Below are positions 6,709 through 35,993 of a stretch of DNA of 64,000 bases, piece by piece. Origin of the DNA: a virus (Duplodnaviria > Caudoviricetes). The stretch lies in IMG/VR virus record IMGVR_UViG_3300028293_000005, positions 9,874 to 73,873 of that record, one strand, 5' to 3'. The position numbers and the translations under genes were made by a program. Each line of letters begins with the position of its first letter. Position 1 is the first letter of the stretch. Under the pieces are notes generated by a model that saw only the letters and a program-made list of their open reading frames with translations, had not been told where the DNA came from and made no database searches.

Positions 6709-7200
6709 GTGAAGACGACGTTTATTTATGCCTTGTGCGAACCGGGAACCCGGAAGGTCCGATACATCGGTAAATCGGACCATCCCAATAAACGGCTTCG
6801 TCGTCATCGGTTATATTCGCGCCGATTGAATTCGCATCTTGGGGCATGGCTGCGTTTAATTCATTCCAGGCAGGAACGGCCGGTTCTGATTGTCCTGGCT
6901 GAGGTTCCTTATTCCCAGTGGGAGGAAGAGGAGACCCGATATATTCGCGCAGCCCGATGTCTGGGGATGGACCTTGTGAACGCGACGGACGGAGGAGAAG
7001 GAGCAAATGGATTGTCGCCCGAGGCGCGGGCTCGATTGAGCGCGGCATTGAAAGGAAAGAAAAAATCACTGGAGCATTGTGCAGCGATTAGCGCGGGAAA
7101 AACCGGCGGGACTCGGGCCTTTTGCCGGGAAGAAACCCGAGAAAAGTCCCGCGCGCGGGCGATTCAAATGCCCAGAAATTCTTCTGGACAATTCATTTGA
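6709..7200 (+). CDS. GIY-YIG homing endonuclease with NUMOD3-like tail
   Basis: FIYALCEP..VRYIGKS..KRL..H..E..YI...NATDGGEG; KSLEHCAAIS repeat. Confidence 0.85.
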   Translation: MKTTFIYALCEPGTRKVRYIGKSDHPNKRLRRHRLYSRRLNSHLGAWLRLIHSRQERPVLIVLAEVPYSQWEEEETRYIRAARCLGMDLVNATDGGEGANGLSPEARARLSAALKGKKKSLEHCAAISAGKTGGTRAFCREETREKSRARAIQMPRNSSGQFI

Positions 7201-9284: not shown

Positions 9285-9976
9285 AGAAAGTGGTCGTGAC
9301 CGTTCACGGTTACGCTGGCGACGCCCATCAAATTGGCGACCTGCGCCCGATGTATGAGCATCACAAGGTGCCCATCGTCGTGATGACGCCCGAGGACTCC
9401 CGTATCGAGACGTTCGGGCCGCACATCTGCCGCTTCGGCGGCAAGCGGCAATACATTGGCGAGGACAGCCTGAAGCGGCAGGTCCGCCATTGGGAAATGA
9501 TGCTCGACTTCAACGCGACCCACTTCCTATCGAATGATTCCGACAGCTTTTGTCTGGCCCCGGAACTTCCCGAGTATCTTTTCAAGCATGACGTGCTGTG
9601 GAGCAACGAAGTGTCCGATATGATGCACAAGCGGAAGCCGGATTACAAGTGGCCCCGCCTCGCGTTCCAGCCGCCATACTTTTGGTCGCGTGAGATTGTG
9701 GAGCGGTTGGTAAAAGCCGCGCCGCTGGTGCAGATTGACCAGCAGACGCCCTTCATAGATTGGTTCATGATGGCGGTCGCCGTGGCCGGCGGAATTCCGC
9801 ACAAGACCTTTCCGGACGGGTTCAGCTGTGGGACGGGATTCCCGCACGGGTTGAAGGTAATGACGGACCAAGTCTGGAACCGGGGGAAAATTTTCGTGCA
9901 CTCAGTCAAGAACGCGGCGATTCGGCGGCAGCTCGAATACGCGCGCGAACAGTTCCTCAAGAGGAAAAAGAAATGA
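9257..9976 (+). CDS. Putative glycosyltransferase (divergent GT-A)
   Basis: DxD in FLSNDSDS, C-terminal FVHSVK; loosely parallels 7969..8736. Confidence 0.5.
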   Translation: MPDEIQQSVKKVVVTVHGYAGDAHQIGDLRPMYEHHKVPIVVMTPEDSRIETFGPHICRFGGKRQYIGEDSLKRQVRHWEMMLDFNATHFLSNDSDSFCLAPELPEYLFKHDVLWSNEVSDMMHKRKPDYKWPRLAFQPPYFWSREIVERLVKAAPLVQIDQQTPFIDWFMMAVAVAGGIPHKTFPDGFSCGTGFPHGLKVMTDQVWNRGKIFVHSVKNAAIRRQLEYAREQFLKRKKK

Positions 9977-10911
9977 ACAAGGAATCCAAAATCTATGTGG
10001 CCGGTCACCGGGGGCTCGTGGGCGACGCCCTGTTTCGCCAGCTCGGGGCGCGCGGCTACCGGAACGTGGTCACAGCCACTCGGTCAGAAGTAGACCTCAC
10101 GGACCCGACGCAGGTGAAGTGGTTTTTCTCCGTGCACCGGCCCGAGTATGTTTTCCTGGCGGCTGCCCACGTCGGCGGCATCCTGGCCAACGACCAGAAC
10201 CGCGTGGACTTTCTCACGAAGAACCTCGCGATTCAAAACAACGTCATCCTGAACGCGGCCGAATACGGCGTGAAGAAGCTCCTCTTTCTGGGCAGCTCGT
10301 GCATATATCCGAAGGACTCCGCGCAGCCCATCAAACCCGAGGCGCTGTTGACCGGCGCGTTCGAGCCCACGACCGAGGCCTACGGAATTGCGAAGGTGGC
10401 CGGCATTCGCCTGTGCCAGTATCTGCGCGACGAGCGCGGGCTGAACTTCATCTGCGCGCAGCCGTGCAATTTATACGGCGGCGGGGACCGTTTTGACAGC
10501 GTCCGCTCGCACGTGGTGCCGGGGCTCCTGACCAGAATGCACACCGCCAAGAAAATCGGGATGCGGGAGCTGGACGTGTGGGGCGACGGCTCGGCCCAGC
10601 GGGAACTTCTCTATGCGGACGACTTGGCCCGCGCGTGCTTGGTCCTCATGCATGAATACGACGGGCGCGAGGTCGTGAATACCGGCAGCAGCGACGAATG
10701 GACTATCAAAGCGATTGCCGAGCAGGTGGCCGAGACCGTCGGATTCAAGGGCTGGCTGTTTTTCGATTCGTCCAAACCGACGGGCGTCCAGCGAAAAGTC
10801 CTCGACAACACCGTAATCCGGTCGCTGGGCTGGTCGCCGAAGGTGGCGTTCCCCGAGGGCCTGAAGCTGACCTACGCGCAGTATTTGCAGCGGCACGTGA
10901 ACGGGGCTTGA
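9973..10911 (+). CDS. fcl: GDP-L-fucose synthase
   Basis: GHRGLVG, FLAAAHVGGILAN, LGSSCIYPK, EAYGIAK, PCNLYG, SHVVP, VWGDGSAQRE all intact; ATG at 9973. Confidence 0.95.
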   Translation: MNKESKIYVAGHRGLVGDALFRQLGARGYRNVVTATRSEVDLTDPTQVKWFFSVHRPEYVFLAAAHVGGILANDQNRVDFLTKNLAIQNNVILNAAEYGVKKLLFLGSSCIYPKDSAQPIKPEALLTGAFEPTTEAYGIAKVAGIRLCQYLRDERGLNFICAQPCNLYGGGDRFDSVRSHVVPGLLTRMHTAKKIGMRELDVWGDGSAQRELLYADDLARACLVLMHEYDGREVVNTGSSDEWTIKAIAEQVAETVGFKGWLFFDSSKPTGVQRKVLDNTVIRSLGWSPKVAFPEGLKLTYAQYLQRHVNGA

Positions 10912-15388: not shown

Positions 15389-15853
15389 ATGCCTTACGCA
15401 GACCCAGTGGTTCGACGCAAAAAGGGAAACGAATACTCCAGAAAATGGAGGGCGAACAATCCTGAAAAAGTTACGAAAGGGCATCGTGCTTGGAGGAAAC
15501 GAAATTTGATTAGCCGGGCCGCATCCATGCAACTCTACAGGGACAGACATCCGTTGGTGTCGCAAGTTCGGTCGCGAATCGCGAATGTTTTGTCCGGGAG
15601 AACAAAAACCGCGTCAACTCTAGAACTTCTGGCAATGCCTTGGAAGGAGTATCGAATCTATTTGCAGGGCCAGTTTCATTCTGGAATGGCGTGGAATAAT
15701 TATGGTGTGCTGTGGGAAGTAGACCACGTCAGACCTTGCGCAAGTTTTGATTTAAAAGACCCGGCACAGCAGCGGGAATGTTTTCATTGGTCTAATACTC
15801 AGCCGATGCTGACCTCGGAAAATCGGAGCAAGGGGGCACGATATGTCATGTAA
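15389..15853 (+). CDS. HNH-like endonuclease, type B (copy 1 of 2)
   Basis: WEVDHVRPCASFDL..CFHWSNTQPM..ENRSKG. Confidence 0.8.
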   Translation: MPYADPVVRRKKGNEYSRKWRANNPEKVTKGHRAWRKRNLISRAASMQLYRDRHPLVSQVRSRIANVLSGRTKTASTLELLAMPWKEYRIYLQGQFHSGMAWNNYGVLWEVDHVRPCASFDLKDPAQQRECFHWSNTQPMLTSENRSKGARYVM

Positions 15854-17003
15854 TAATTGCAATGATTGTGATTGCGGCGGGTGCGGCGGCGCGGATTGCA
15901 ATACTACGTTTCCCTCGAATTGCGGGTCGCAATTACAAAATCCATGTCGTTCTTGTCCCCCGAACTCTGCGGACTGTGAAACTTTGCCAAGCGCACTTCA
16001 AAACTTTGTAGACGCTTTTTTCGGCTCCGTCACGAAGACGGAGATAAATGGGGAAGTGCGGTGGATTTTACCTTGTAATTTGGATATTGGACTGCCGGGG
16101 AACCCCCGAGCGGATGGGGAAGGTTTAAGTTGCTACTTTTTAAGATTATTTCGCGACGGCATCAATGGGCTCGAAGGCCCGACTGGTGCGCCCGGCGCGG
16201 CCGGCGCGGCTGGGCCGACTCCCTGGACAATTTTGCTTACGGCGTTCGTGCAGCCCTCCTCCGGCGGCACGGTGAACTTCAATATCGTGGACTCCCCCAC
16301 GGTGACCGTCGGCCAGACGGTTTTCATCCCCGGCTCCGGTTATTACATCGTGACGAGCCGAGTGTCGAACTCGGTCTTCGCGCAACTAATTTCCGCCGTC
16401 CCCTCGCCCAACGCGGTGACCGTGCCCGGCACGATTGTCATCCCGACGGGGCCACAGGGGCTCACGATTACCGGACCAACGGGCGCGCCGGGAACGCCGG
16501 GACCAAACGGCCCGCAAGGACCAACGGGGCCTACTGGCGCAGGCGGCGCCACTGGACCGACGGGGCCGACGGGAGCGGTGACCACGAACCAAAACGGTCA
16601 GGTCGTCATCACGGGCGCCACGGATTTTGCCGTGGACAACACGGACCAGAAAATTACGTTCGGAACGGACGACCCCGAGGTCAACCTTCCGGTCGCCGGG
16701 ACCTATTGGGTCATCGCGCGGTTCCGGTGTTTTAACGACGTCGGCAGCGGAAACAACCTGGGCTGGGATTTTTATCTGAACAACCAAACCACGGCGACTC
16801 CTGTGCCCGGCGGCGAGCACCCCGACGTGATTATTTTCAACACCGGCGGCTCGAACCACACGAACTACGTGCACATCTGGGCGCTGGTCACTACGTCCGC
16901 GGACAATCAAATCATCGACGTTCATGTTACGTCGGAGAGCGCAGATTCGCCACAAACGATTTTCCAGGACGGCTCGAACATCGCGTATATCCGATTGCAA
17001 TGA
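15843..17003 (+). CDS. Collagen-like virion fibre with Cys-rich N-terminus
   Basis: Cys-rich start, two Gly-X-Y tracts, C-terminal beta-sandwich-like domain. Confidence 0.75.
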   Translation: MSCNNCNDCDCGGCGGADCNTTFPSNCGSQLQNPCRSCPPNSADCETLPSALQNFVDAFFGSVTKTEINGEVRWILPCNLDIGLPGNPRADGEGLSCYFLRLFRDGINGLEGPTGAPGAAGAAGPTPWTILLTAFVQPSSGGTVNFNIVDSPTVTVGQTVFIPGSGYYIVTSRVSNSVFAQLISAVPSPNAVTVPGTIVIPTGPQGLTITGPTGAPGTPGPNGPQGPTGPTGAGGATGPTGPTGAVTTNQNGQVVITGATDFAVDNTDQKITFGTDDPEVNLPVAGTYWVIARFRCFNDVGSGNNLGWDFYLNNQTTATPVPGGEHPDVIIFNTGGSNHTNYVHIWALVTTSADNQIIDVHVTSESADSPQTIFQDGSNIAYIRLQ

Positions 17004-17209
17004 GCGACTGCACGCATCCAATTCAACGCGACCCGGAAAACGATTTGTCTTTCCCGTGCTCCAAGCGCGGCTCGACGAAGATTTTGCCCGGACGCACGCT
17101 GCCCGCGCGCATCATCGTCAACCAGACTGATGACGTGCTGCAGGACGAAGACGGCTTTCCGATTCTGGACGAGGTCACCGGCGAAACCATTCACGACGAT
17201 TTACGATAA
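17000..17209 (+). CDS. Small fibre adaptor-like protein
   Basis: ATGA overlap; acidic LQDEDGFPILDE motif typical of fibre attachment segments. Confidence 0.55.
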   Translation: MSDCTHPIQRDPENDLSFPCSKRGSTKILPGRTLPARIIVNQTDDVLQDEDGFPILDEVTGETIHDDLR

Positions 17210-18321
17210 TGAAAGTTAGCCAATACGTAAACGGCGCCGAAGCGAATCCCGAGGGGTGGCTTTTCATCGCGGAAAAGCAGCCGCCGGGCGCCCCGAAGCC
17301 TTACATCACGAAGAAAATTGCGCCTGACAAACTCGGTGCCGTGGGTCCAGCTGGGCCGCAAGGGCTGCCGGGCGCGGCCGGCGCTACCGGCCCTACCGGC
17401 GCGCAAGGCGCGAGCGGGGCTCCTGGTCCGACGGGCGCAACCGGCGCACAAGGCGCGGACAGCTCGGACGAGTGGGTGCACCCCGACGGGTTTTCGGTGG
17501 ACCTGTTCGAGGAATACCCGCAGGGTGCGATTGTCGCGCCCAACGGCGGGTTCGGCTGGGACACGGCCGGCGTTGTCTCGGGCGGAACCATCGTGCAACG
17601 CAACATCGCGAACGGCCGCACCGAAAAACGGCTGAGCCTAAACAACGGCGAGTTCGCGCGCAAGCTGTATATCGGCAGCGACTGGCACCGGCTACGCATC
17701 GCGCTTTTGCTACGCGTCAATGGCGCGACCACTTTTACTGCGAACGGATTCATCGGACTTTGCTCGGGCACCGCGAACCCCTTCGGGGGAAACACGGACA
17801 ACGCAATCGGGGCTTACTTCGACCCGGCTAGCGTCGGCTCATGGGTGTTCACGAACGGCGTGACAAAAGATTTTTTCGCGCAGAGCGTCAGCACGCGTTT
17901 CGTCACGAAGCGTGGAGTGGGCGCCCCGGTAGACCATGGAGTCGGCGCCGGGTCCGACGGTCGTCGATTCGCCTCTACCGAAGCTCTGCGCACGATGTTT
18001 TTCCTCGAAGTCGCGCGGCCGGTGTTCGCCACCTCGGCGACGTCAGTTGCGTATTCGTGGGGCATGCGCTCGACCAACGCGACCAACGCAGAATTTTCGC
18101 TCAGCAAGCGTTCGCTTTTCGATGTTGCGCTCGACAGCGCGAACAACAGCGGCTTGGCGCAGGACGACACAATCGTCACGGTGACGGGCTCCGGGTCCAC
18201 GACGGTCGCGGCCAGCTTTAACGACGACGAGAGCACGGGGGCTTTTGACACGCTCAACATTCGTTGGGACGGCACGCATCCGTTGGAAATCTGCGGCATG
18301 GCGGTCCACAAAATTTACTGA
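17209..18321 (+). CDS. Collagen-like fibre / receptor-binding protein 1
   Basis: Short Gly-X-Y tract then about 290-aa domain paralogous to the next gene. Confidence 0.75.
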
Positions 18322-19691
18322 TGAACTACGCATTAGAGGAATTTTACGAGACAGCGCCGCTAACCTCGGCGGACGACGGGCATATCCTGATTGGGAAGCT
18401 CAATGCGGGCGGCGTGATTCAACTTTTTCGGCTGCACGTAAACGACCTGAACCGGATTACCGGTCCGACGGGTCCGACGGGTCCGACAGGCCCGCCCGGA
18501 ACTAACGGAACGAACGGGACAAACGGCGCAACTGGGCCTACCGGACCTACCGGACCAACGGGACCAACTGGCGCGGTTGGGCCAACGGGAAGTAACGGGC
18601 CAACAGGCCCCACAGGCCCTACCGGAGCAAATGGCGCAAGCGGGCCTACCGGACCTACCGGACCAACGGGACCCACGGGAGCAAGCGGCGCGAGCGTGAC
18701 TGGGCCAACCGGCCCCACGGGTCCCACGGGTCCCACAGGTCCAACGGGGCCAACAGGGCCAACAGGCGCGAGCGTTACTGGGCCAACTGGACCTACGGGG
18801 CCAACAGGACCAACTGGGCCGACAGGCGCAAGTGGGTCAGGCGGCGCGGCCGGCGCGTCCTATACGAGCGATTCTTTTGCGCTCGATAATTTCGAGGATT
18901 ACGCGACTGGCGCAATCTCCAACTTCACGAGTGGCTCCGGATGGAGCGGCTCGGGTTCGGCGTCTGGCGCGACTATCGTGGCTGTCACGGGTTTTGCTGG
19001 CACCGATAAGCGGCTCTCGCTCGTCGGCCCTGGCGAATTCAAGCGCAAGATGGCGTGGGGAGAAAAGTGGAAGCGGCTTCGCATTGGCGTCCTTCTGCGA
19101 ATCAGTGGCGCGGCCACTATCACTGGCGACTTTGTTTTCGGCGTTTGCTCTGGTATTACGGACGGTGCCGGCAGCACGGGCTGCGCGAACTTCATCGGAG
19201 TGGGCTCGCGACCGACGAATACTAATCAATACACGTATTCGACCGGCAGCGACATGGCGACCTTCGCCGCGACGTTTGCCAGCGCCTCCACCAAGCACAA
19301 CACGACCTGGGGTGACGGCGGCGGGTTTACGTCCATGAAGGGCTACACCGCGGCCGGGTCTGCGGGGTTGGTCGTGAATATCTGCGACATCCGGCGCGTT
19401 CGGTTCGGGACCACAAGCAACAATTATGTATTGTTCGGATTGGGACCCTCTGGCTCTGGAACGGGTGCCGACGGGCCAGAAAAGGCTCTGGATTGGGGCT
19501 CGCTCCTCCAGGCGGTCGCTATTCCGGACAACGCTACGCTGCCCCTGAACTGGTTCTGGGACGGTAATGCGGCCACGAACACCATTTCGCATAGCGAAAC
19601 GAACGGGGCCTTGGACAGCATCAACATTTGGTGGCAACACGCCACCGTGCCGATTGAGGTGGCTGGAATAGCCGTCCTCAAACTCTATTGA
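18321..19691 (+). CDS. Collagen-like (GPT)n fibre / receptor-binding protein 2
   Basis: About 125-aa GPT-rich tract; C-domain paralogous to previous gene; TGATG coupling gives ATG at 18321. Confidence 0.8.
18458..18830 (+). repeat. Gly-Pro-Thr collagen repeat (degenerate 9-bp units)
   Basis: Tandem ggnccnacn units read directly. Confidence 0.9.
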
Positions 19692-19722: not shown

Positions 19723-20043
19723 ATGAAGACCCCTATTGATTTGGGCTACAACCTGGAGGGACCGACATCGGTCGCGTCCAGCCAGAAGAAAATTTTCCCG
19801 ACTCTCCATCTTGAATGGCCTACGAGCTATGACCTCCCGGAGTCTGGAGAGCTGACCGTCACGTTCCGGAAAACGCATGAGGCGAAGTCCAAGGACCAAA
19901 ACGGCAAGACCCGTTATACGGTGGACCTGGAAATCCAGTCCATTAACGACGTCGAGGAAGGTGAGTCCGAGGGGGAGACGATGGACGAGGAGTCTGGTTC
20001 GGACGCGCTCGACCGCTATAAGAAAGAAGCCGAAGGCGAATAA
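19723..20043 (+). CDS. Hypothetical acidic protein
   Basis: Own promoter; TAATG coupling to next gene. Confidence 0.65.
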   Translation: MKTPIDLGYNLEGPTSVASSQKKIFPTLHLEWPTSYDLPESGELTVTFRKTHEAKSKDQNGKTRYTVDLEIQSINDVEEGESEGETMDEESGSDALDRYKKEAEGE

Positions 20044-20762
20044 TGTCCGACAGGACTTTTATTTATGGATTGTGTGACCCTGATACCGGCGAGCTGCGGT
20101 ATGTCGGGAAAGCGGATAATCCGGAAAAGCGAGTAATCAGCCACCTTACGGAAGCGGCGAGAGGAAAAAATCGCTCGCACCGCGGGAATTGGCTTAGGAG
20201 TCTTTTGGCGCAATCAAAATCTCCGCGGCTTGTAGTGTTGTTGAACGTAGCCAAAACGGAATGGCAATTTTGGGAGCGTGACCTTATTAAGTTTTTCCGC
20301 GACGCGGGTGCTAATCTGGTAAACGAAACAGATGGGGGAGACGGGGTATTGGACATGACTGGTGTGGTCCGTGCAAAAATCCGAGCCGGATTAAAAAAGA
20401 AATTCGAGACGGACCCTGAATACCGCCTTCAAATGCGTCTGAAAAACGTGGGCAAGACACAATCTTCTGAGACGATAGAGAGACGCGCGAAAAAATTACG
20501 AGGGAAAATTCGGTCTGAAGCCAGCCGTCTTAAATATGCCGCCAGCAAACAAGGAGTAAAACGTGCCGGCAGCAGTCAGTATGTGGGTGTGAATTGGAAC
20601 AAGCGACTGCAAAAATGGTGCGCTGTTTTCAATACTCGGCATCTGGGGGTTTTTGAATGCGAAGAATCGGCAGCGCGAGCGTATGATAAGGCTGCCGTTG
20701 AGGCGCGTGGGCTAGAGGCGCGCGTTAATTTCCCGAAAGGAGAAACACATGTTTCAAGCTAA
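20043..20762 (+). CDS. GIY-YIG homing endonuclease with NUMOD3 and AP2 domains
   Basis: FIYGLCDP..LRYVGKA; NETDGGDG; SSQYVGVNW..KW..LGVFECEESAARAYD..NFP. Confidence 0.85.
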   Translation: MSDRTFIYGLCDPDTGELRYVGKADNPEKRVISHLTEAARGKNRSHRGNWLRSLLAQSKSPRLVVLLNVAKTEWQFWERDLIKFFRDAGANLVNETDGGDGVLDMTGVVRAKIRAGLKKKFETDPEYRLQMRLKNVGKTQSSETIERRAKKLRGKIRSEASRLKYAASKQGVKRAGSSQYVGVNWNKRLQKWCAVFNTRHLGVFECEESAARAYDKAAVEARGLEARVNFPKGETHVSS

Positions 20763-25696: not shown

Positions 25697-26155
25697 ATGA
25701 CGCAGGACCTGACCATAGCATATATCCCGCACACGAGCATCCGGGGCCTGGAACCCCTGTTCCGGGCTTACTTCGAGGACATCAAGTATCCCGGCAAAAT
25801 GAACCTCGACTTCTTCGAGCAGGTCTGGGCGCCGATGGTGCGGCGCGACCAAGCGGAGATTATCGTTGCGGCCGATGACGCGATTCGCGGACTCTGCGGC
25901 ATGACTTATTTTCGGGACGTGTTCAATGGTGAAATGACCGCCACCATAGTTTTGCTGTGGGTGGCGCCCGAATGCCGCGGGCAGGGAATCGGCGCTGCTC
26001 TTTTGAAACAAGCGGAAGAAAACGCTGAAGCCCGCGGGTGCATGTCGGTGGTTCACGGTCACCCGTTCACTGTTCAAAAGGACGGCGGGCGGGCGCTGTT
26101 CGAGAAGCGCGGCTATTCCGCCGTCGAACTTTATTTTCGGAAAAACTTGGAGTAA
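25697..26155 (+). CDS. GNAT-family acetyltransferase
   Basis: LWVAPECRGQGIGAALLKQAE acetyl-CoA motif A; LFEKRGY. Confidence 0.9.
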   Translation: MTQDLTIAYIPHTSIRGLEPLFRAYFEDIKYPGKMNLDFFEQVWAPMVRRDQAEIIVAADDAIRGLCGMTYFRDVFNGEMTATIVLLWVAPECRGQGIGAALLKQAEENAEARGCMSVVHGHPFTVQKDGGRALFEKRGYSAVELYFRKNLE

Positions 26156-26157
26156 CT

Positions 26158-27414
26158 ATGGGAAGCTCAATCGGAACAGTCCTCGGTGGCGGCGCCTCGC
26201 TCGCCGAACTCTTTACGGACTCGGCCGCGAACCGCAACGCGTATAACGAACAGAAGCGCGGGCTCGCGCAACAGCGCGCCCAACTCAAGGAGGATTATAA
26301 CCTGGACCGCGTGGCTGGACTCGTTCAGCAATACGACAAGGGTTATCTGGACCGTAAAGTCGCGCTGCAGAAAGAATACGAACCCGAACTTTACGCCCTC
26401 GGCCAAAAGGCACGGCAGGACTTACTCGCAGAGGCCGCGCGTCCGTCGTCCGCGTTGGAATCCACCCGGACGGCCAAGCAACTTTTTGCGGAGAACATCG
26501 ACCAGGACCCCGCGCTGAAAAAGCTCAAAGACACCGTCGTTCAGAAAGCGAACGATTTGCTGTCGATGGGTGGAACGCTTCCGCCTGAATATCAGGCCGA
26601 GCTGGTCCGCGCTGGAGTGGGTCAAGCCGCGCAGGCCGGCATCAAGCCGCAGTCGTCTTCGGTGGGCGGTGTTGTCTCGAATGTCTTGGGCAGCGCCGGC
26701 GAAAAGCTGCGGCAGGCCCGCACCGTCGAAGCCGCCGGCTTGGCGAGCACGGCGCAACAAATGACCGAATCGCGCGCGAAAATTCTTGGCTCGATTTTCC
26801 CCTCGATTCAAGCCTCCGAGCGGGCCAATCAGATGCGGACGCCGGGCTATCTCGGACTTGCTCAGTCACTGATGCCGGACGCCGCGACTGGGCTGACTGG
26901 CCGCGAGCTGTTAAATGTGGACTTCGCTGGGCGTCAGGCTCAGCGGAATATCGGAATGTCGCTGCACAATTTGAAGGCGCAACGAATTTTGGAACAGGCT
27001 CGTATTCTGGACAACACGCTGGACAAGCAGGCCGGCGGCATGGGCGGCAGCGCGCCGGGCTCCTACGGCAGCGGCAATCAGAACGCGGGTGGCGGGGGCG
27101 GAATGGACATCGGTTCCATCGTGGGAATCGCCGGCATGCTTTCGGACAAAAATTCCAAGGAGAATATCAAAAAGATTGACGAGTCGGAGGTCCTGGACAA
27201 GGTCTCTAAGCTCCCGGTCTCGAATTGGGAATATAAAAAGGACATCGAGGGCGTTCCTGCCGGCCGACACACCGGCCCCATGGCCCAAGACTGGTCTCGA
27301 CTCTTTGGAGACGGTTCTGGTAAAGAAACCACGATTCCCATCGTAGACGCGGTGGGGGTGACCTTAGCTAGTATCAAAGCCATCGTGAAACAATTGAAAG
27401 AGCTGCAGGCATGA
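26158..27414 (+). CDS. Ejection/pilot protein with C-terminal peptidase S74 chaperone domain
   Basis: Gly/Ala/Gln-rich helical body; SDKNSKENI..WEYK..HTGPMAQD; ATG at 26158. Confidence 0.7.
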   Translation: MGSSIGTVLGGGASLAELFTDSAANRNAYNEQKRGLAQQRAQLKEDYNLDRVAGLVQQYDKGYLDRKVALQKEYEPELYALGQKARQDLLAEAARPSSALESTRTAKQLFAENIDQDPALKKLKDTVVQKANDLLSMGGTLPPEYQAELVRAGVGQAAQAGIKPQSSSVGGVVSNVLGSAGEKLRQARTVEAAGLASTAQQMTESRAKILGSIFPSIQASERANQMRTPGYLGLAQSLMPDAATGLTGRELLNVDFAGRQAQRNIGMSLHNLKAQRILEQARILDNTLDKQAGGMGGSAPGSYGSGNQNAGGGGGMDIGSIVGIAGMLSDKNSKENIKKIDESEVLDKVSKLPVSNWEYKKDIEGVPAGRHTGPMAQDWSRLFGDGSGKETTIPIVDAVGVTLASIKAIVKQLKELQA

Positions 27415-27920
27415 CGCTATCTGCAAAAGAAAGAAATCGGATAGCCTGCGCGAAATACCGCGCAAAAAATCTGGAAGCTCGTAGAGCGGACGGCCGCCGA
27501 CGCGAGGCGGCTAGATATGCGAACAATCCAGAAAAGATGCGAACGCGTCGTAGAGACTGGCGAAAGGCGAATCCAGAACGGAGTCGAGAGACTTGGCATA
27601 AGTGGATGGGCACGCCGGCCAATCGAATCGCACACAACCTTCGTCATCGAATAAAAAGTGCCCTGAAGGGTCATTCCAAGAGTAGCTCAGCTAAAACACT
27701 ACTCGCAATGCCTTTGGAAGAATTCCGTATTTATATTCAGGGTCAGTTTCGTCCAGGGATGACCCGGGAAAATTATGGTAGCGTGTGGGAACTTGACCAC
27801 GTAATTCCGTGTGCAAGCTTTGACTTGACGGACCCCGCCCAGCAACGCGAATGTTTTCATTGGTCAAATCATCAGCCTCTTTTTGCGGCTGAAAACCGTT
27901 CGAAAGGAGCGAGGGTATAA
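27411..27920 (+). CDS. HNH-like endonuclease, type B (copy 2 of 2)
   Basis: WELDHVIPCASFDLTDPAQQRECFHWSNHQPL..ENRSKG. Confidence 0.8.
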   Translation: MTLSAKERNRIACAKYRAKNLEARRADGRRREAARYANNPEKMRTRRRDWRKANPERSRETWHKWMGTPANRIAHNLRHRIKSALKGHSKSSSAKTLLAMPLEEFRIYIQGQFRPGMTRENYGSVWELDHVIPCASFDLTDPAQQRECFHWSNHQPLFAAENRSKGARV

Positions 27921-29537: not shown

Positions 29538-32500
29538 ATGCCCGTTCTGGAGGACATCGCCAAAGGCGAGCAATTCACCGACGTCCCTCTTCAGCCCGGG
29601 GACGTCAAGCCGGTTTTGAGTCAGGAAGACCTGTCCACCGAGCATGCAAAAATGCGCGAGGCCTTTCGCGCCAAGGGTCTGCCCTTGCCGCCCCTGGCTC
29701 CGGGCGAGAAGGAGACAGTTAAACCCGCGGACCCTTTTGCCGCCGAGCAGCAGGTCCCTCACGACAAGTTCGCCGGGGAACAGCAAGTGCAGGACCCCTT
29801 CAAGGGTCAACGGCAGGCCGACGCCCTGGACGAGCGCACGCCCCAAGACTTGGCCAAGGACCCGAACTTTAAGATTCACGACTTCATTTTCGCGAATAAG
29901 GACAACATCTTTGGTGACCCTCAGCGATATCAAAAGGCGCTGGACACCTATCGCGAGTCGCAGGCCCAGGGAATCACGGCCGCGAAAACTATTGAGTCCG
30001 TCAAGAAGGAAACGATTCCCTTGCTGAAGGATATCATCAAGTCCATTCCGAAACGTTTGGAGAACATCAGCGACATTGCTGTCTCGCCGCTGATTGCTGA
30101 AGCCATTGGGAAAGTTCAAAGCCCTGAGAAGCGCGCCCAGTGGGAAGACATGGCGGAAGCGGACAAAGAAAAAGCCATTGCGGAGGCCATTGCCGGCACG
30201 CAGACTGCCGTGGGCTCGCTCCAGGACATGGTGCGACAAGGGACCCGCAAGCTGTTAGGCCCCGCTCTCGAATTCGGTGGCAAGAAAGACTGGCGCAAAA
30301 TTTCTGACGACGAAGTAAAAAATGAGCTATTCAAAGACCTCGGTTGGCGCGAAACCGTCGAAGGCCTCTCGCGCGGCGAAGGCGTCCAAGACCTCGTTGA
30401 CAAGGGTGTGCAGCTCAACCCGGAAAACATCAAGCTCCTCAGCCTCACAGACCCGATTACCTTGGTCGCCACTGGCGCGGGACTGAAAGCGGTCGGCGCG
30501 GCTGGCAAGGTTCTTTTTACTGCCGCGGATGAAGCCGGCGCGAACGCCGCTCTGGGCTACCTCGGTCGCCAAGCGGGAACCGCAGCGGCTAAGGGCGCAC
30601 AGCTCGCGGGCCGCGGGGCGGAAGTGACCGGTCAGGTCATCGGCAAGGCCGCTCACCTGCCGACGTTCACTGCCGCCGGTCTGGGCTCTGGCCACTTCTT
30701 CAAGGCAATGGCTGCGGCCGGCGCCGGAAAGCTGGCTGGCAAAATCATCGAGAAGGGCGGCACCCTCCTCCGCGAGGTTGGCGAAGCCGCTGGGGCGCCT
30801 GCCGAAGGCCAACTTTCGTTGGGCCTTGAACAGACGACCGGCGCAAAAGTTTTGAACGCGGCAAAAGCCGCGACTGCAGTTGTTGCACCGCCCGTGGTTG
30901 GCGCCGTCAAAGGCGCGGCAGCGACCGCTCCGCTTGCATTCGCCACCGACGAACCGCAAGGCGGTCTGCTCGGTGTCGGTGCGGTGGGCGGCGCTGTTCA
31001 CGGAACCGTCTCTGGCATCAAAGGCGCGGTGGCCGAGGCTGGAGCCAAGCGATATTTTGACCCCGGACAAATCACCTGGGAAAAGACGCCTTCGCCCGGG
31101 TATGACAACTTCTCGGCCATGAATGCGGTCCATGACCAAGTGGCCGCGAGCGCGCCCGAGAACGCGCGGAACATGGTGAACAGCCTTAGGGAGACTTTGC
31201 GCCCCTTCGGAAAGAAACTCTTTTTGGTAGACGACGCCACGTATCAAAAGGCAATCGAGAACGATGCCGTGCGCGCGAACGGTGGCCAGCCCTTGTCTCC
31301 CGAGCAGCAGGCCGCGGTCGCCGAGGAATCCAAGTCCCGCGGCGTCTCGAAGATTTTCATGGCCGATGACGCCGGCAAGGGAGAGATGGTCACGCTGGTC
31401 AAATCGACCGAGGACGCTCCGCATGAGGTCTCCCATGTTTTGGAATCCGTCCTGGCGCCCGACGCGCGAAAAGCGTTACACGATTCCGTCCGCGAAAATT
31501 ATTCCGGCGACGAACTGCAACAGCTCAAGGACCATTACGAATCCCAGCTCGGCCGGAAGATGACGCCCGATGAAGTTGAAAGCGAATTCATCGCGGACAA
31601 CTGGGCGAACCTGCTTTACAACACCTCACTCGAATCGCTGGGGCTTCCGGCTCCGCGCCGCGGGTTCAAGCAGGTGATGCTCGATGCGTCTTTAGCCCTA
31701 GGGAACGCGCTTGGCGCGGACATGACCGCCGGCCGGAAAACTCCTGGATTAGACATCCAGCCCTCGTATTCTTTGCGCAAGCGACTCGTCGAAGCGTCCG
31801 GGGACATTTTGAGCGAGAGCAACCGTCTCGCCGCACAGCAGGCCACAGCTCCCGAAGTGAAGCTAGCCGCCCCAGAGGCCGCGGCTACCGTCACACCCGA
31901 GGAAGTGAAACCCGCGGCCCCGCCGTCCGAAGTCAAAATCCAGACGCCCGTGGAACCTGCCGCGCAGGGCGAACTCAATTTCGAACCGTCGGCCAAACCC
32001 GAAGCGGCACCGGCTGCGCCCCCTCCCGCGCCGGCACCCGCAGAAGAGGCTCCACCGACGGTTCGTCCAGATAAATCCGCGCGCCGCGCAGAGGTGACCA
32101 ATACCGGGGTCGCCATGAAGTGGGCCGAGGACAAGCCCAACCGCGACGTCGTTGACACGGTCAACCAAGCCTTGGACGAAAAAGTCGGCCTAAAGGTGGA
32201 GCACTCCGGTGCGCCTACTGAGGTGTTCCAGCCCACGGAGCCAGAGCGCGAGGCTGAGATTGAAGCCGGCCGGGGGTTGCCTCCCGACTTGCGCGAGCAG
32301 CATTCCAAGGAACTCCGGCCAACCCGCTGGGAGACCATGAAGTCCGGCGAGCCGCAGCTCATTGCGCGCAGCACGGACAAAGTTTTGGCCAACGTTGACC
32401 GCGCGGTGCAATGGGCGAAAAGGACCGGCGAGACCGTGCCGTGGGAAACGGATGCCCAGGGCGCGCTGACTCCCGCTGGCGCAGACCAGCTTTTGGCGGA

Positions 32501-35500
32501 CCTGAACACATATTGGGATAACCAGGACCGCGGGTTCCGTGGCGGCGGTGAAAAACTCGTCCGCCCGCCCGCCAAACTGGGCGCGTCCATCCCCGCCGAA
32601 CAGGGCGAGGGCGTTCCTCTGGGCGCGGATAAGGAGCAATGGCTTAATCTTTTGCAGGGCAGGGAAACTGGCCCGCCCGTGACGGCGCGTGCTGGCAAGG
32701 GACTCCCAGCGAACATCAAGGCGCAGGAAATCCGCGCGGCCCAGGGATTGCCCAGCGAGCGCATTACCGGCGGCGTCAACATTCCGGTCTACCCGGAAAA
32801 GGTCACCGGCGGTCGTGGCGCGGTTGAGGTCAAGGAAACCAACCCCCTGCGCAACCGTCTACGGGCTGCAGGCATGCCGGTGGGCGACCTGCACACGGTC
32901 GTCGAGCGGCTGAATGCGACGGACCTTTTGAAGGCAGAACGCCGGCCAGAGCTGACCGGTCGCGGCGGCTCCACCGATATCACGCGCGCGGGATTTTTGA
33001 CAGAGAAGCCCGTGAGCGAAACCATCGACGAGGTGGTGAACGACTCGCCAAAACAATGGCAGAACCGATTTGGACCGAACGCGACCCTGACTGGCTCGGC
33101 GTATGACTTGGGGTTGGGTTTGAAAAACCCGGCGGACCTGAAGTCGCTGATGGACGCCCAGGACGCCGCGGTGAAAACCGCACAGGCGTCCATGGCCGAA
33201 GTGCGTGCTGGCAATTTCGACGCTTTGGACCGCGCGTCCGCTGACGCGACCAAGGCACAATTTTTCCGAGAAGCTGTCGAAGCGGCCACGGACTCCGGCT
33301 CGGCTGCCGGTCCAGCCGGTTGGCGTCGTTCACGGCCGAACAGTCAACCGCCATTCGCCACGCCGGAGTCCCGCAAGGGGTTCCTGACCGAGGAAAAGCC
33401 GGCCGAAGGCGAGCCCGATGCAATCAAGCAAGCGTCCATCCGCACCAAAGGCGGGCAGGTATTCACCGGCTCGTGGCACGGAGAAGCCTTGGACAATTTT
33501 TACGAAGCGGCGCGCAAGGGCGAGGTCAAAGACCTGCCCGCAGGCACGAACCTGACGGACCCTGACCCTTCAGGTTTGTATTCGTCCGGCTACCTGACCG
33601 ACGGATTCAACACGAAGTCCGGAAAATTTTTGGACCGCGCCCAGGCCCTGGAGCATTCCGTCAAAATCGGACAGTTCAAACCAGCCGATAAGGGCAACAT
33701 CGCGCGCACAGGCGAACTCGAAGCGAATGAGTTCACTGGACGCCGGGCTTTTCTCACGCCGGAGCCGTTGAAAAAAATTCAAGAGGGAGAAGACGGCACG
33801 GGCGAGACCTTCGACCGTCGCGGAAAAGTGAAGGACATTGCCGGCAAGCCATTGCTCGTGGTGACCTTGAGCAGCCGAGACGTCCCGCGGAGTCTTCTGT
33901 CGAACAAGGACCTGATTGATTCTTTCAAAGATGTTCCTGGGCACGTTCCCAACGTGGCCCTCGGCGTTTTTAACATCGCTCGACGGGGACCCAAAGGAGA
34001 ACCGTTGACCTCGGTTGATTTGAATGTTTTGGTTCCCAAAGAACACTTGGAGAACGCAATCAAGTTCGCGCGCGACAACAATCAAGAATCCATCTGGGAT
34101 GCGGAGAAGAGTGAACTGATTCCCACTGGCGGAACCGGGGAATCGAAATTGCGGGCCGAAGACTTTCCTGACGTGGCTCAAAAACTTGTGAAGGGTGAGC
34201 CTATTGACGTGGAAGCGCGCGGCGGCAACCTGACCGAGACGCCGGTTCCGGAAATTCCGACGGACGAAGAAATCACGGACGCCCTGTCCGTGGACAAGCG
34301 TCCCTTTGTCGGAGAACACCGTGACCTGGACCCCGGCACTCCCGTCGGTGTCCGCATCGACATTCCCGCGTATAACCGCACGGGCAAGTTCGTGCAGACG
34401 ATTCACGAAAAGGCCAGCGGTGGTCAAGTCGGCAAGCGCATTGGCTACGATTCGATTGTCACGCTCGATGACCCAACCTTTTTCAGCAACGAGAAGGGCG
34501 CCCGCAAAATCAAAGAGGGCGCTGCGAAGTTTCCGATTGCGACTGTCGAGGGCAAGTTTAATCCGGACCGGGAAGTTCCGGCGGACCTGGAAGATTGGAC
34601 CGCGGTCGGATTCAACCCCACGAAGCACTCCTACTTTTACGACAAGGCTACGGACGAGCCTGTGACGGGCGGCAGCAAGGCCGTCTCTGTGGGCAACACG
34701 GTGTATGTCAAAGACGCCACGTTCGGGACCAAAGCCGAGGTGCAGGCGCGCGGGGGTTACCTGACCCCGGAGAACACCAACGTCACGCAGAAAAAGAAAC
34801 CCGGGACGCCGGAATACAACGATTACGTCACGAACAAAATCGAGAAGTCCAAGCAGTTCCCCGAGGCGCACCCGTTGCAGTTCGTGACGGACGATAAGGG
34901 CGACTACATGGCCCAGTGGGACGGCGAACCACTACCAATCAAGCGGCCCTACGATTTGTTTCACTCGGATTTGGCAGAAAAATCCGGGTCAAAAGAAGCG
35001 TATCGCAAGGACCTCGCCGCGAAAGTTGACGCTGCTTATCTCGAAGCGAAAAAGAACCCGGACGTCCATGCCGGCGAGACTTGGTATTCGGAATATCGGG
35101 CCAAGGCCAAAAATCTTTTGGGCGACGACATGCAACTTTTCGCCGAACTGTTGGGCGCTACGTCTCCGCAACAGCTCGTCGGCCCGAACTTCAAGGACGC
35201 GCTTGCTGCGTATAACGAATTCCGGAAGGGCGCCTACGATGACATGCTCAAGAAGTATCAGGAAGGCAAACAGAAGTATGCCGCCGGAGATATTTCCGAT
35301 TACATGGAAGCCAAGACGCGCGAGAAACAAGAGCGGCTGGTAGCGAAGCGCGACGCGGGCAAGCTTTCCGCCGAGGAGTTCGCGGCCCAGGAAGCCAAGA
35401 ACAAAAAGAAGGGCATCGAGGAGCCAACCAAACAGGCTTACCTGAACTGGTGGCAAGAAACGAACAACCTGATTCCGACGAAGGAGACGGGGAAAAAGTT

Positions 35501-35993
35501 CGGCATGAACTCGCGCGCCGTGCTTCGCGTGCTGGGCCGCTCCTGGTTGCAAGGTGTCGAGGGTCCGAAGACCCCGAACTTCACTGGGAACCTCTCAGGT
35601 GCGTCTTTCAAGGCAACCATTGACGTGTGGGCCATGCGTCTGTTGCACCGTCTCTCCAATGAGGAATCCGGCAAGCCCTGGCGCATTCAATCCGCCAACG
35701 AGACGGGTATCGCTGACCCGGAATTTTTCTTCGGCCAGGACGTGATGCAGGACGTCGCCGACAAGCACGGAATCCAGGCCGACGCGCTGCAGGCAATCCT
35801 TTGGTTCGCGGAGAAGGACCATTACGAGAAGAACGGCTGGGTCAAGTCCGCCGGCAAGGAGAAGTCCGATTACAACTCGCTCATCGCGAAGACGACCAAA
35901 ACACCCGAGGGCTTCCTCTCGCTGAAAGAGGTTGAAAAGAAGCCGAAAGGTGGTAAAGTAAAGAAGGCCGTTTTACCCGAGACCACACCATGA
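29538..35993 (+). CDS. Large polyvalent internal virion protein (2151 aa) with HExxH metallopeptidase and serial cargo modules
   Basis: HEVSH at 31422-31436 with downstream EFIAD; repeated RxG(F/Y/N)LT linkers; last large gene of ejection cluster. Confidence 0.7.
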   Translation: MPVLEDIAKGEQFTDVPLQPGDVKPVLSQEDLSTEHAKMREAFRAKGLPLPPLAPGEKETVKPADPFAAEQQVPHDKFAGEQQVQDPFKGQRQADALDERTPQDLAKDPNFKIHDFIFANKDNIFGDPQRYQKALDTYRESQAQGITAAKTIESVKKETIPLLKDIIKSIPKRLENISDIAVSPLIAEAIGKVQSPEKRAQWEDMAEADKEKAIAEAIAGTQTAVGSLQDMVRQGTRKLLGPALEFGGKKDWRKISDDEVKNELFKDLGWRETVEGLSRGEGVQDLVDKGVQLNPENIKLLSLTDPITLVATGAGLKAVGAAGKVLFTAADEAGANAALGYLGRQAGTAAAKGAQLAGRGAEVTGQVIGKAAHLPTFTAAGLGSGHFFKAMAAAGAGKLAGKIIEKGGTLLREVGEAAGAPAEGQLSLGLEQTTGAKVLNAAKAATAVVAPPVVGAVKGAAATAPLAFATDEPQGGLLGVGAVGGAVHGTVSGIKGAVAEAGAKRYFDPGQITWEKTPSPGYDNFSAMNAVHDQVAASAPENARNMVNSLRETLRPFGKKLFLVDDATYQKAIENDAVRANGGQPLSPEQQAAVAEESKSRGVSKIFMADDAGKGEMVTLVKSTEDAPHEVSHVLESVLAPDARKALHDSVRENYSGDELQQLKDHYESQLGRKMTPDEVESEFIADNWANLLYNTSLESLGLPAPRRGFKQVMLDASLALGNALGADMTAGRKTPGLDIQPSYSLRKRLVEASGDILSESNRLAAQQATAPEVKLAAPEAAATVTPEEVKPAAPPSEVKIQTPVEPAAQGELNFEPSAKPEAAPAAPPPAPAPAEEAPPTVRPDKSARRAEVTNTGVAMKWAEDKPNRDVVDTVNQALDEKVGLKVEHSGAPTEVFQPTEPEREAEIEAGRGLPPDLREQHSKELRPTRWETMKSGEPQLIARSTDKVLANVDRAVQWAKRTGETVPWETDAQGALTPAGADQLLADLNTYWDNQDRGFRGGGEKLVRPPAKLGASIPAEQGEGVPLGADKEQWLNLLQGRETGPPVTARAGKGLPANIKAQEIRAAQGLPSERITGGVNIPVYPEKVTGGRGAVEVKETNPLRNRLRAAGMPVGDLHTVVERLNATDLLKAERRPELTGRGGSTDITRAGFLTEKPVSETIDEVVNDSPKQWQNRFGPNATLTGSAYDLGLGLKNPADLKSLMDAQDAAVKTAQASMAEVRAGNFDALDRASADATKAQFFREAVEAATDSGSAAGPAGWRRSRPNSQPPFATPESRKGFLTEEKPAEGEPDAIKQASIRTKGGQVFTGSWHGEALDNFYEAARKGEVKDLPAGTNLTDPDPSGLYSSGYLTDGFNTKSGKFLDRAQALEHSVKIGQFKPADKGNIARTGELEANEFTGRRAFLTPEPLKKIQEGEDGTGETFDRRGKVKDIAGKPLLVVTLSSRDVPRSLLSNKDLIDSFKDVPGHVPNVALGVFNIARRGPKGEPLTSVDLNVLVPKEHLENAIKFARDNNQESIWDAEKSELIPTGGTGESKLRAEDFPDVAQKLVKGEPIDVEARGGNLTETPVPEIPTDEEITDALSVDKRPFVGEHRDLDPGTPVGVRIDIPAYNRTGKFVQTIHEKASGGQVGKRIGYDSIVTLDDPTFFSNEKGARKIKEGAAKFPIATVEGKFNPDREVPADLEDWTAVGFNPTKHSYFYDKATDEPVTGGSKAVSVGNTVYVKDATFGTKAEVQARGGYLTPENTNVTQKKKPGTPEYNDYVTNKIEKSKQFPEAHPLQFVTDDKGDYMAQWDGEPLPIKRPYDLFHSDLAEKSGSKEAYRKDLAAKVDAAYLEAKKNPDVHAGETWYSEYRAKAKNLLGDDMQLFAELLGATSPQQLVGPNFKDALAAYNEFRKGAYDDMLKKYQEGKQKYAAGDISDYMEAKTREKQERLVAKRDAGKLSAEEFAAQEAKNKKKGIEEPTKQAYLNWWQETNNLIPTKETGKKFGMNSRAVLRVLGRSWLQGVEGPKTPNFTGNLSGASFKATIDVWAMRLLHRLSNEESGKPWRIQSANETGIADPEFFFGQDVMQDVADKHGIQADALQAILWFAEKDHYEKNGWVKSAGKEKSDYNSLIAKTTKTPEGFLSLKEVEKKPKGGKVKKAVLPETTP

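Follow-up and report, generated by a model that had tools for sequence, protein, structure and literature searches.

The window analysed here, i.e. the whole 64,000-nucleotide stretch at positions 9,874 to 73,873 of the IMG/VR virus record IMGVR_UViG_3300028293_000005, contains at 29538..35993 (+ strand) an open reading frame (ORF) for a polyvalent virion-type protein of 2151 amino acids (aa), in which one short motif recurs at five junctions between otherwise unrelated modules. These motifs are real, lie between domains, mark units that have been shuffled during evolution and change in concert across the junctions of a protein, and a conserved zincin-like domain accompanies them. Their status as junction markers and recognition sites is well supported, and it is plausible, judging from sequence and structural models, that the HExxH domain of the same protein cleaves them. 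This makes the repeated motif a better candidate than any so far for the site, predicted long ago, at which the domains of polyvalent proteins would be cut free, although the cutting itself, along with the enzyme, the bond, the timing and the packaging and injection of the protein, is something we infer. That the junction motifs are the processing sites of a polyprotein-like effector array, cut by the protein's own peptidase, is a reading for and against which we see the balance as even.

According to this reading, the protein would consist of a carrier part (aa 1-510), a zincin-type metallopeptidase (aa 516-726), a second core domain extending to aa 1149 and five unrelated cargo modules, with a short linear motif of the type [FY]-x-[P/T/V] (R-x-G-[FY]-L-T-[E/P] in this clade) at each junction in an exposed, unstructured linker. 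The motif would be recognised and cut, by the protein's own peptidase acting either after assembly or after delivery into the host, so that the modules are released as separate proteins. Since gluzincins usually select a large hydrophobic residue at P1', our guess is that the scissile bond precedes the aromatic residue, which would then be P1'. Packaging in the virion and delivery with the DNA are presumed from the context, as the gene is the last in a block of tail-fibre genes on the + strand, and from the precedent of gp47 in the virions of phi24B, in which a polyvalent protein of 2811 aa is plentiful.

The repeated motif and the modules it separates

The initial annotation had described five copies of the pattern R-x-[GA]-[FYN]-L-T-[EP], and a pattern scan finds all of them where they had been placed, the first starting at 32985, one base away from the 32984 given there. 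They read (all on the + strand) RAGFLTE at junction 1 (aa 1150, 32985-33005), RKGFLTE at junction 2 (aa 1279, 33372-33392), RRAFLTP at junction 3 (aa 1402, 33741-33761), RGGNLTE at junction 4 (aa 1561, 34218-34238), where Asn replaces the aromatic residue, and RGGYLTP at junction 5 (aa 1738, 34749-34769). The segments that they delimit are 122, 116, 152, 170 and 407 aa long, and no significant similarity was found among the five, the best pair being B versus C with E=0.06.

It is hardly credible that such a repeat is functionless, i.e. the product of chance, of a composition bias in the linkers, or of a recombination scar or microhomology. The linkers are indeed compositionally biased (polar and Pro-rich) and the modules clearly recombine, but when the protein was permuted 20,000 times the strict pattern was expected 0.0011 times against the 5 copies observed, and no shuffle ever contained more than one, which rejects chance and composition. 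Outside this ORF, the strict pattern does not occur in any of the six frames of the 73,873-bp genome. Furthermore, codon usage differs among the motif copies (TTG, CTG or CTC for Leu; ACA, ACC or ACG for Thr), from which it follows that the repeat is kept at the protein level and not at the DNA level.

The position of the motifs relative to the folded parts of the protein was assessed in an AlphaFold2 model that covers aa 1100-2151 and draws on 42 homologues. Its mean pLDDT (predicted local distance difference test score) is 80, just 11% of the residues have a pLDDT below 50, and the coil segments below that value lie at model residues 40-56, 184-192, 299-305, 461-494 and 642-652. The motifs, at model residues 51-57, 180-186, 303-309, 462-468 and 639-645, each overlap one of these main internal gaps. 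The initial annotation had proposed structure prediction as a check and would have been contradicted by motifs lying inside folded domains; because all five overlap low-confidence gaps between well-folded blocks, none does so. Recognition sites in unstructured linkers between autonomous domains are what a self-processing array is expected to contain.

The same arrangement is found in relatives. A word-indexed search returned 103 of these, most of them 1400-3700 aa long and from viral contigs of 70-75 kb; they have a mosaic make-up in which ART-PolyVal, GNAT, methyltransferase and LPD domains are joined (Pfam models PF18760, PF18834, PF18857, PF18858 and PF00583, plus methyltransferases). The initial annotation had also suggested searching homologues for the motif, and equivalent motifs do occur at their module junctions, with a median spacing between junction sites of 164 aa. 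When the protein was compared with mosaic relatives by BLAST, 152 of the 248 internal endpoints of high-scoring segment pairs were no more than 15 aa away from the centre of a motif, where the span covered would lead one to expect 15%. In four relatives that were scanned with Pfam, the GNAT, ART-PolyVal, gp82 and DUF7178 domains each lie between consecutive motifs and none is interrupted. Finally, the gp82 and DUF7178 modules are 62% identical to their counterparts in the clade with FS-type junctions (see below), whereas the cores of these proteins are only 30% identical, from which it follows that these modules moved between clades.

The modules themselves are a helical module A (aa 1157-1278, 33006..33371, +; from the model), which is shuffled as a unit among relatives, the alpha/beta modules B (aa 1286-1401, 33393..33740, +) and C (aa 1409-1560, 33762..34217, +), both delimited by the model and by BLAST, a beta-rich module D of the Phage_L5_gp82 family (aa 1568-1737, 34239..34748, +; PF25735, 1.4e-6), and a helical module E with DUF7178 (aa 1745-2151, 34770..35990, +; PF23802, 9.7e-9). 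Phage_L5_gp82 (aa 1626-1721) and DUF7178 (aa 2001-2091) are the only Pfam matches within the whole protein. With 2151 aa, at least seven separately folded domains and modules that are mutually unrelated, the protein fits the polyvalent class, and it shares the domain vocabulary of that class through its relatives, its own Pfam-recognised domains being only DUF7178 and gp82. Matches of the model in BFVD include free-standing phage proteins of 114-155 aa, e.g. U5Q1I1 of Bacillus phage Staley (135 aa, TMt 0.71), as well as others of about 200 aa; judged by size, the former would correspond to the gp82-type module D and the latter to the DUF7178-type module.

The DUF7178 module (window 35010-35873, aa 1825-2112), which is widely conserved and C-terminal, is predicted to adopt a helical fold resembling HhH-GPD DNA glycosylases. 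A comparison with VIA (a Foldseek-independent structural search) matched it to the AGOG protein Tm1821 (Z 8.6 over 184/209 aa) and to ROS1, OGG1, EndoIII, MagIII, MutY and the queuine-salvage protein DUF2419 (Z 6-7.8), all of them scores at which helical folds can match by chance. These model-based matches suggest that the module may be a DNA- or nucleobase-directed effector.

Lineage variants of the junction motif

When the core (aa 511-1156) was used as query in an exhaustive phmmer search, 198 cluster representatives were obtained that have it in common. The seven-residue pattern of the initial annotation holds within the closest clade, to which the exact heptapeptide is restricted, but not across the family, where the conserved part is aromatic-x-(P/T/V) while the R, G and E are clade-specific. 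In other clades the corresponding junctions read x-x-x-F-L-P, F-S-[V/P/A] or F-M-P, and at least seven lineage flavours exist (FLP, FMP, FSV/FSP, FLT, FAP and FQP). The variation is seen at the end of the core, where T-D-x-x-R-x-G-F is invariant or nearly so family-wide (R1150 and G1152 of junction 1 are invariant in the alignment and F1153 nearly invariant) and is followed by LT, LP, MP, SV, AP, QP or SP. Likewise, what comes after the orthologous C-terminus of module B (...EF..xRxF) depends on the clade, being LTP, LP or SV/SA/SP, and the position of junction 4, which carries the deviating Asn in the present protein, reads RKGYLTPE in relatives.

Each flavour tripeptide is enriched roughly 10-fold in its own proteins and occurs at background level in the others, the flavours are mutually exclusive between proteins, and the motif is 5-30 times rarer in the flanking frames of the relatives than in the polyvalent proteins. 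In 63 further relatives from the phmmer search, the frequencies per 1000 aa before and after the end of the core are 0.18 and 2.12 for FLP, and 0.03 and 1.00 for FMP. Across 102 proteins, the later junctions can be predicted from the dipeptide that stands behind the aromatic residue of the first one, in a matrix that is almost purely diagonal (LP 4.08, MP 3.18, SV 2.33, LT 2.29, AP 3.5, QP 3.67 and SP 4.0; the values off the diagonal are mostly below 0.8). The top dipeptide of the first junction agreed with that of the later junctions in 51 of the 102 proteins, compared to a mean of 19.2 and a maximum of 29 after permutation. Two other candidates for junction flavours, FNP and FDP, which are enriched in two relatives (P0068 and P0099), were rejected, as they are located inside domains.

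On the core tree, FLP is widespread and paraphyletic and FMP sits on further branches, while FS[VPA] forms one nested clade with a mixed sister and F/Y-L-T another nested clade that contains mixed members; the flavour has switched between clades at least three times. The junctions that flank the exchanged gp82 and DUF7178 modules bear the flavour of each recipient protein. A DNA-level repeat or recombination site was rejected on this ground, together with the differing codons; the diagonal over 102 proteins and the conversion of junctions to the recipient's flavour require selection at the protein level. The concerted flavour, also around modules that have moved, calls for a single reader in each protein, or in each phage, by which all of the junctions are recognised. 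The covariation of sites establishes one flavour per protein, the first junction predicting the later ones.

A single reader need not be a protease, and the motif could instead remain uncut, serving as a docking or handling motif for one partner (a chaperone, a host factor, the capsid interior, or the machinery of the portal or of ejection) or as a stereotyped domain-capping hinge for threading the 2151-aa chain through the tail. We consider this unlikely, albeit deserving of serious attention, as related peptidase-bearing giants such as N4 vRNAP have been reported to be uncleaved (PMC5512222), and a tandem arrangement of motifs 14 aa apart in the FLP clade would give a useless peptide if cut and bivalent binding if docked. 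On the other hand, it is hard to explain why a docking motif would mark each of the module boundaries and yet be missing from the first 1100 aa, the modules match free-standing small proteins of other phages by size, which fits release, and the embedded protease domain with its intact metal ligands would otherwise have no obvious substrate. The tandem arrangement was seen just after the core in many FLP-clade proteins (P0013, P0025-27, P0032, P0033, P0035, P0040, P0041 and P0047) and has the sequence FLP-G-x-E-T-D-x-A-x-R-x-G-FLP-D; it could represent either a released mini-peptide or a bivalent site.

A zincin-like domain as candidate reader

The HEVSH sequence reported by the initial annotation at 31422-31436 (+) is present (H629, E630 and H633) and lies on the predicted active-site helix of a zincin-like metallopeptidase domain at aa 516-726 (31083..31715, +). 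Alignments of 43 and 23 sequences show no variation at H629, H633, Y667 and E683 and almost none at H532 and R551, and H[ED]xxH is kept at the equivalent place in 100 of the 102 full-length relatives. In an AlphaFold2 model of aa 495-1160, aa 515-735 are folded at a pLDDT of 85-95, and the predicted fold comprises three strands, followed by the HEVSH helix (model residues 133-143) and a later helix (model residues 183-200) that carries E683 (in SEFIADNW; 31584..31586, +), the candidate third zinc ligand according to alignments and model. An HExxH helix combined with a third-ligand Glu on a later helix is the arrangement characteristic of zincins.

Structural comparison with VIA matched the domain, with scores in the middling range throughout, to the catalytic domain of anthrax lethal factor (1yqy_A; Z 5.9 over 162 aa), PPEP-2 (6fpc_A; Z 5.3 over 155/185 aa), PPEP-3 (9g0j_A; Z 4.9) and PprI (Z 4.6), and also to Certhrax. 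With Foldseek the matches were weak only, led again by anthrax lethal factor (E 0.07-0.2), and nothing in the PDB reached E<=0.001 for either AlphaFold2 model. At the sequence level, there was no match to the Pfam peptidase families (MPTase-PolyVal included) at E<=1, none to PHROGs, and no relative among PDB sequences at E<=0.001 in a profile search, for which reason membership of a curated peptidase family was rejected. Because no sequence model recognises the domain, we refer to it as a zincin-like fold nearest to M34. The earlier assignment of this region as a zincin is supported as far as a conserved zincin-like domain with invariant H629, H633 and E683 is concerned, while the fold matches to lethal factor and the PPEPs agree with one another at middling scores. 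As a lead only, the ESM Atlas places the HExxH region next to the LPD23 and LPD1 clusters.

The remainder of the conserved part is formed by a Gly/Ala-rich N-terminal region (aa 1-510, 29538..31067, +), which is conserved and collinear in relatives and contains moderately hydrophobic stretches at aa 298-327, 438-467 and 476-494 according to a hydropathy scan, a Pro/Ala-rich disordered spacer at about aa 790-870 (31905..32147, +; pLDDT <50), and the second core domain (aa 861-1149, 32118..32984, +), which was delimited by alignment, AlphaFold2 and VIA and at whose C-terminal end the family-wide T-D-x-x-R-x-G-F stands. The N-terminal region may have a role in incorporation or translocation. Within the second core domain, VIA found an Sm/WYL-like beta-barrel (PafBC, BrxR, DriD and CapW at Z 7-8 over about 85 aa), and this domain, which lies beside the peptidase, could be a regulatory or substrate-holding module. 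WYL domains in defence regulators bind single-stranded DNA or small ligands.

Several points weigh against cleavage by the protein's own peptidase. The general base at position 630 is Glu in 76 and Asp in 24 of the 102 full-length relatives, and the 24 HDxxH relatives keep full junction sets (4-10 motifs), which weakens a strict dependence on the canonical Glu; with motifs undiminished in these proteins, either Asp can do the work of the Glu or the sites are read by a different enzyme. In this respect the release-site reading of the initial annotation stands only in part: the motifs do separate domains and are kept in homologues, and the zincin-like domain is conserved, while the strict HExxH dependence is what has been weakened. 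In addition, the zincin assignment comes from modest structural scores of the models (Z 4.9-5.9, Foldseek E about 0.07) without a sequence-level match, junction 4 has Asn in place of the aromatic residue, and cleavage is purely inferred. The flavour tracks phylogeny with few independent switches, which makes co-evolution with a cis peptidase indistinguishable from that with another phage or host factor. Lastly, N4 vRNAP, ArdC and TraC1, which have related peptidase domains, were reported to be delivered uncleaved (PMC5512222).

The 24 proteins with Asp (e.g. P0009, P0010, P0013, P0020-29, L023, L026, L038, L042 and L043) read HDAGH, which marks one subclade of FLP flavour in which both His and the distal Glu are kept; HDAGH is an unusual general-base substitution for a zincin. 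When the residues of the active-site helix were compared with the flavours, by eye only, no simple covariation rule emerged. Looking for forms without the peptidase yielded no informative case, as the one N-terminally short protein that was traced (P0019) is truncated by the end of its contig (L027), and the other short ones start at an identical point of the alignment.

The reader could also act in trans, with the sites being cut by a phage prohead protease in the capsid or by a host protease after entry, while the H[ED]xxH domain does another job, directed at host targets or peptidoglycan. In T4 the internal proteins (IPs) and Alt are cut by gp21 at L/I-x-E, and in phiKZ inner-body proteins are cut by gp175 at S/A/G-x-E; three of the five sites read L-T-E and would fit the gp21 rule, but most flavours (FLP, FMP, FSV) lack a Glu. 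The retention of junction motifs in the HDxxH clade agrees with such a protease, the flavours could as easily follow a host or maturation protease as a cis domain, and peptidoglycan degradation has been suggested by the phi24B authors for the peptidase domain of their polyvalent protein. However, the cis domain is kept in 100 of 102 proteins, and the motif is found neither in the candidate capsid, scaffold and portal ORFs nor in the rest of the genome, although maturation proteases normally cut such proteins too. A search of 30 structural-region ORFs with Pfam and PHROGs detected no prohead protease family, which is a weak negative since these ORFs are very divergent, too much so for most hidden Markov models; neither a site shared with capsid or scaffold proteins nor a maturation protease gene was thus seen. 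Both the confinement of the motif to a single protein and the failure to detect such a protease speak against a maturation protease acting in trans, and we regard the trans explanation as a whole as quite improbable. A general capsid-maturation site was rejected because the motif occurs nowhere else in the genome. A site of the type IV prepilin kind (G|F-T-L-I-E) was rejected as well, there being no hydrophobic helix after the motif and no fit of FLP, FSV or FMP.

Known systems, gene neighbourhood and meaning

Processing of polyvalent proteins by peptidases was predicted by Iyer, Burroughs, Anand, de Souza and Aravind in 2017, with embedded zincins releasing domains as in RNA-virus polyproteins (PMC5512222). 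Their polyvalent proteins resemble the present one in being giant multidomain phage proteins, with the ART-PolyVal, GNAT, methyltransferase and LPD fusions seen in the relatives, and in the HExxH domain that is embedded in the chain. Among solved folds, anthrax lethal factor comes nearest to this domain, and it was also the template obtained for the polyvalent-protein MPTases in that study. They differ in that an explicit junction motif, its positions and its lineage variants are defined here (no cleavage site is named in PMC5512222, where the word 'linker' does not occur), and in that the peptidase domain is recognised by no Pfam model. Full-text literature searches found no cleavage site defined for polyvalent proteins since 2017.

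PPEP substrates carry their site repeated in linkers. The M34 zincins of MEROPS (lethal factor and PPEP-1/-2/-3) share with the present domain the HExxH followed by a Glu on a later helix, and they are its best structural matches. These enzymes read a linear motif of about six residues, often with Pro, the PPEPs reading P3 to P3' (PMC12828418). The differences are that no sequence-level relationship to these enzymes was detected, that the domain forms part of the very chain presumed to be its substrate, that the motif has the form aromatic-x-Pro/Thr instead of Pro-Pro, and that a quarter of the members have HDxxH. A tentative extension, which we rate as less likely than not, is that the family is a natural library of matched protease-site pairs, in which an M34-like zincin with aromatic-x-P/T/V specificity would have been re-tuned at least seven times, carrying all 5-10 junctions with it.

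In operational terms the closest analogue is the MARTX toxin, and the proposed array would also resemble the polyproteins of RNA viruses. MARTX and the large clostridial toxins also have a carrier or translocation part, a cis protease and a string of unrelated, exchangeable modules with unstructured separators; in MARTX, the Leu at which processing takes place is read by the cis protease and lies in the unstructured stretches between the effectors (PMC2900308). The resemblance is one of analogy and not of homology, as the MARTX protease is a Cys protease whereas the enzyme here is putatively a metallo enzyme, no InsP6 switch is expected in bacteria, and the target is a bacterium, to which delivery would be through the phage tail. 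Compared to the injected capsid-internal proteins of T4 and phiKZ, the likeness is that injection-destined phage proteins are cut at short consensus sites, three sites here being L-T-E. Their sites are, however, common to capsid and scaffold proteins and read by a serine protease in trans, whereas the motif is confined to one protein, most flavours have no Glu and no prohead protease was detected.

The window covers most of a virus record that is rated complete, and most of its structural ORFs match no family. Among 50,697 phage records, only two weak matches to the gp82 module were found in cultured relatives, and because only these two GenBank phage records share even one module, the lineage is an uncultivated one. 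Upstream of the polyvalent gene there are three consecutive collagen-repeat tail-fibre genes (15843-19691, +) and a fibre gene with a Peptidase_S74 intramolecular (endosialidase) chaperone domain (26038-27414, +). A standalone GNAT acetyltransferase gene (25697-26155, +; PF00583, 1.5e-12) lies 3.4 kb upstream of the polyvalent gene, and several relatives carry GNAT modules fused into the polyvalent protein; that this gene is the free counterpart of the fused modules was rejected, as there is no BLAST similarity. Nuclease-type genes are scattered in the structural block (2472-2942, 27411-27920, 6709-7200 and 20043-20762, all +), two of them endonuclease VII-like (PF02945, 5e-18; phrog_1035) and two GIY-YIG-like, with one fused to an AP2 DNA-binding domain, and these are probably homing endonucleases. 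A nucleotide-sugar epimerase-like gene (phrog_540, 4.5e-67) is located at 9760-10911 (+) inside the head and tail block. A serine recombinase (Resolvase PF00239, 1.5e-23; L004:8461-9270) is found just before the window, upstream of a 643-aa ORF that spans the window start, and hints at a temperate phage or an invertible element.

Polyvalent proteins are widespread in phages and plasmids and have since 2017 been assumed to be dismantled by their own peptidases, and the few examples that have been studied conflict with one another. The class and the idea of self-processing had thus already been published (2017), and what is new is the explicit junction code, its placement and its concerted lineage variation. 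It provides exact and testable predictions of cut sites, five in this protein and hundreds in the 198 related clusters, with natural specificity variants as built-in controls. Even if processing were refuted, something would have to read the concerted motif, and a hitherto unknown step of packaging or ejection would then be indicated. If it is confirmed, it would explain how one gene delivers a number of anti-host activities that are independent of each other; sequence alone would suffice for annotating the effector boundaries of metagenomic giants, and short orthogonal protease-site pairs would become available as tools. Should the family moreover be a library of such pairs, a processing code would for the first time have been defined for the polyvalent proteins of phages, and phages would then be seen to deliver effector cocktails as timed, self-dismantling polyproteins.

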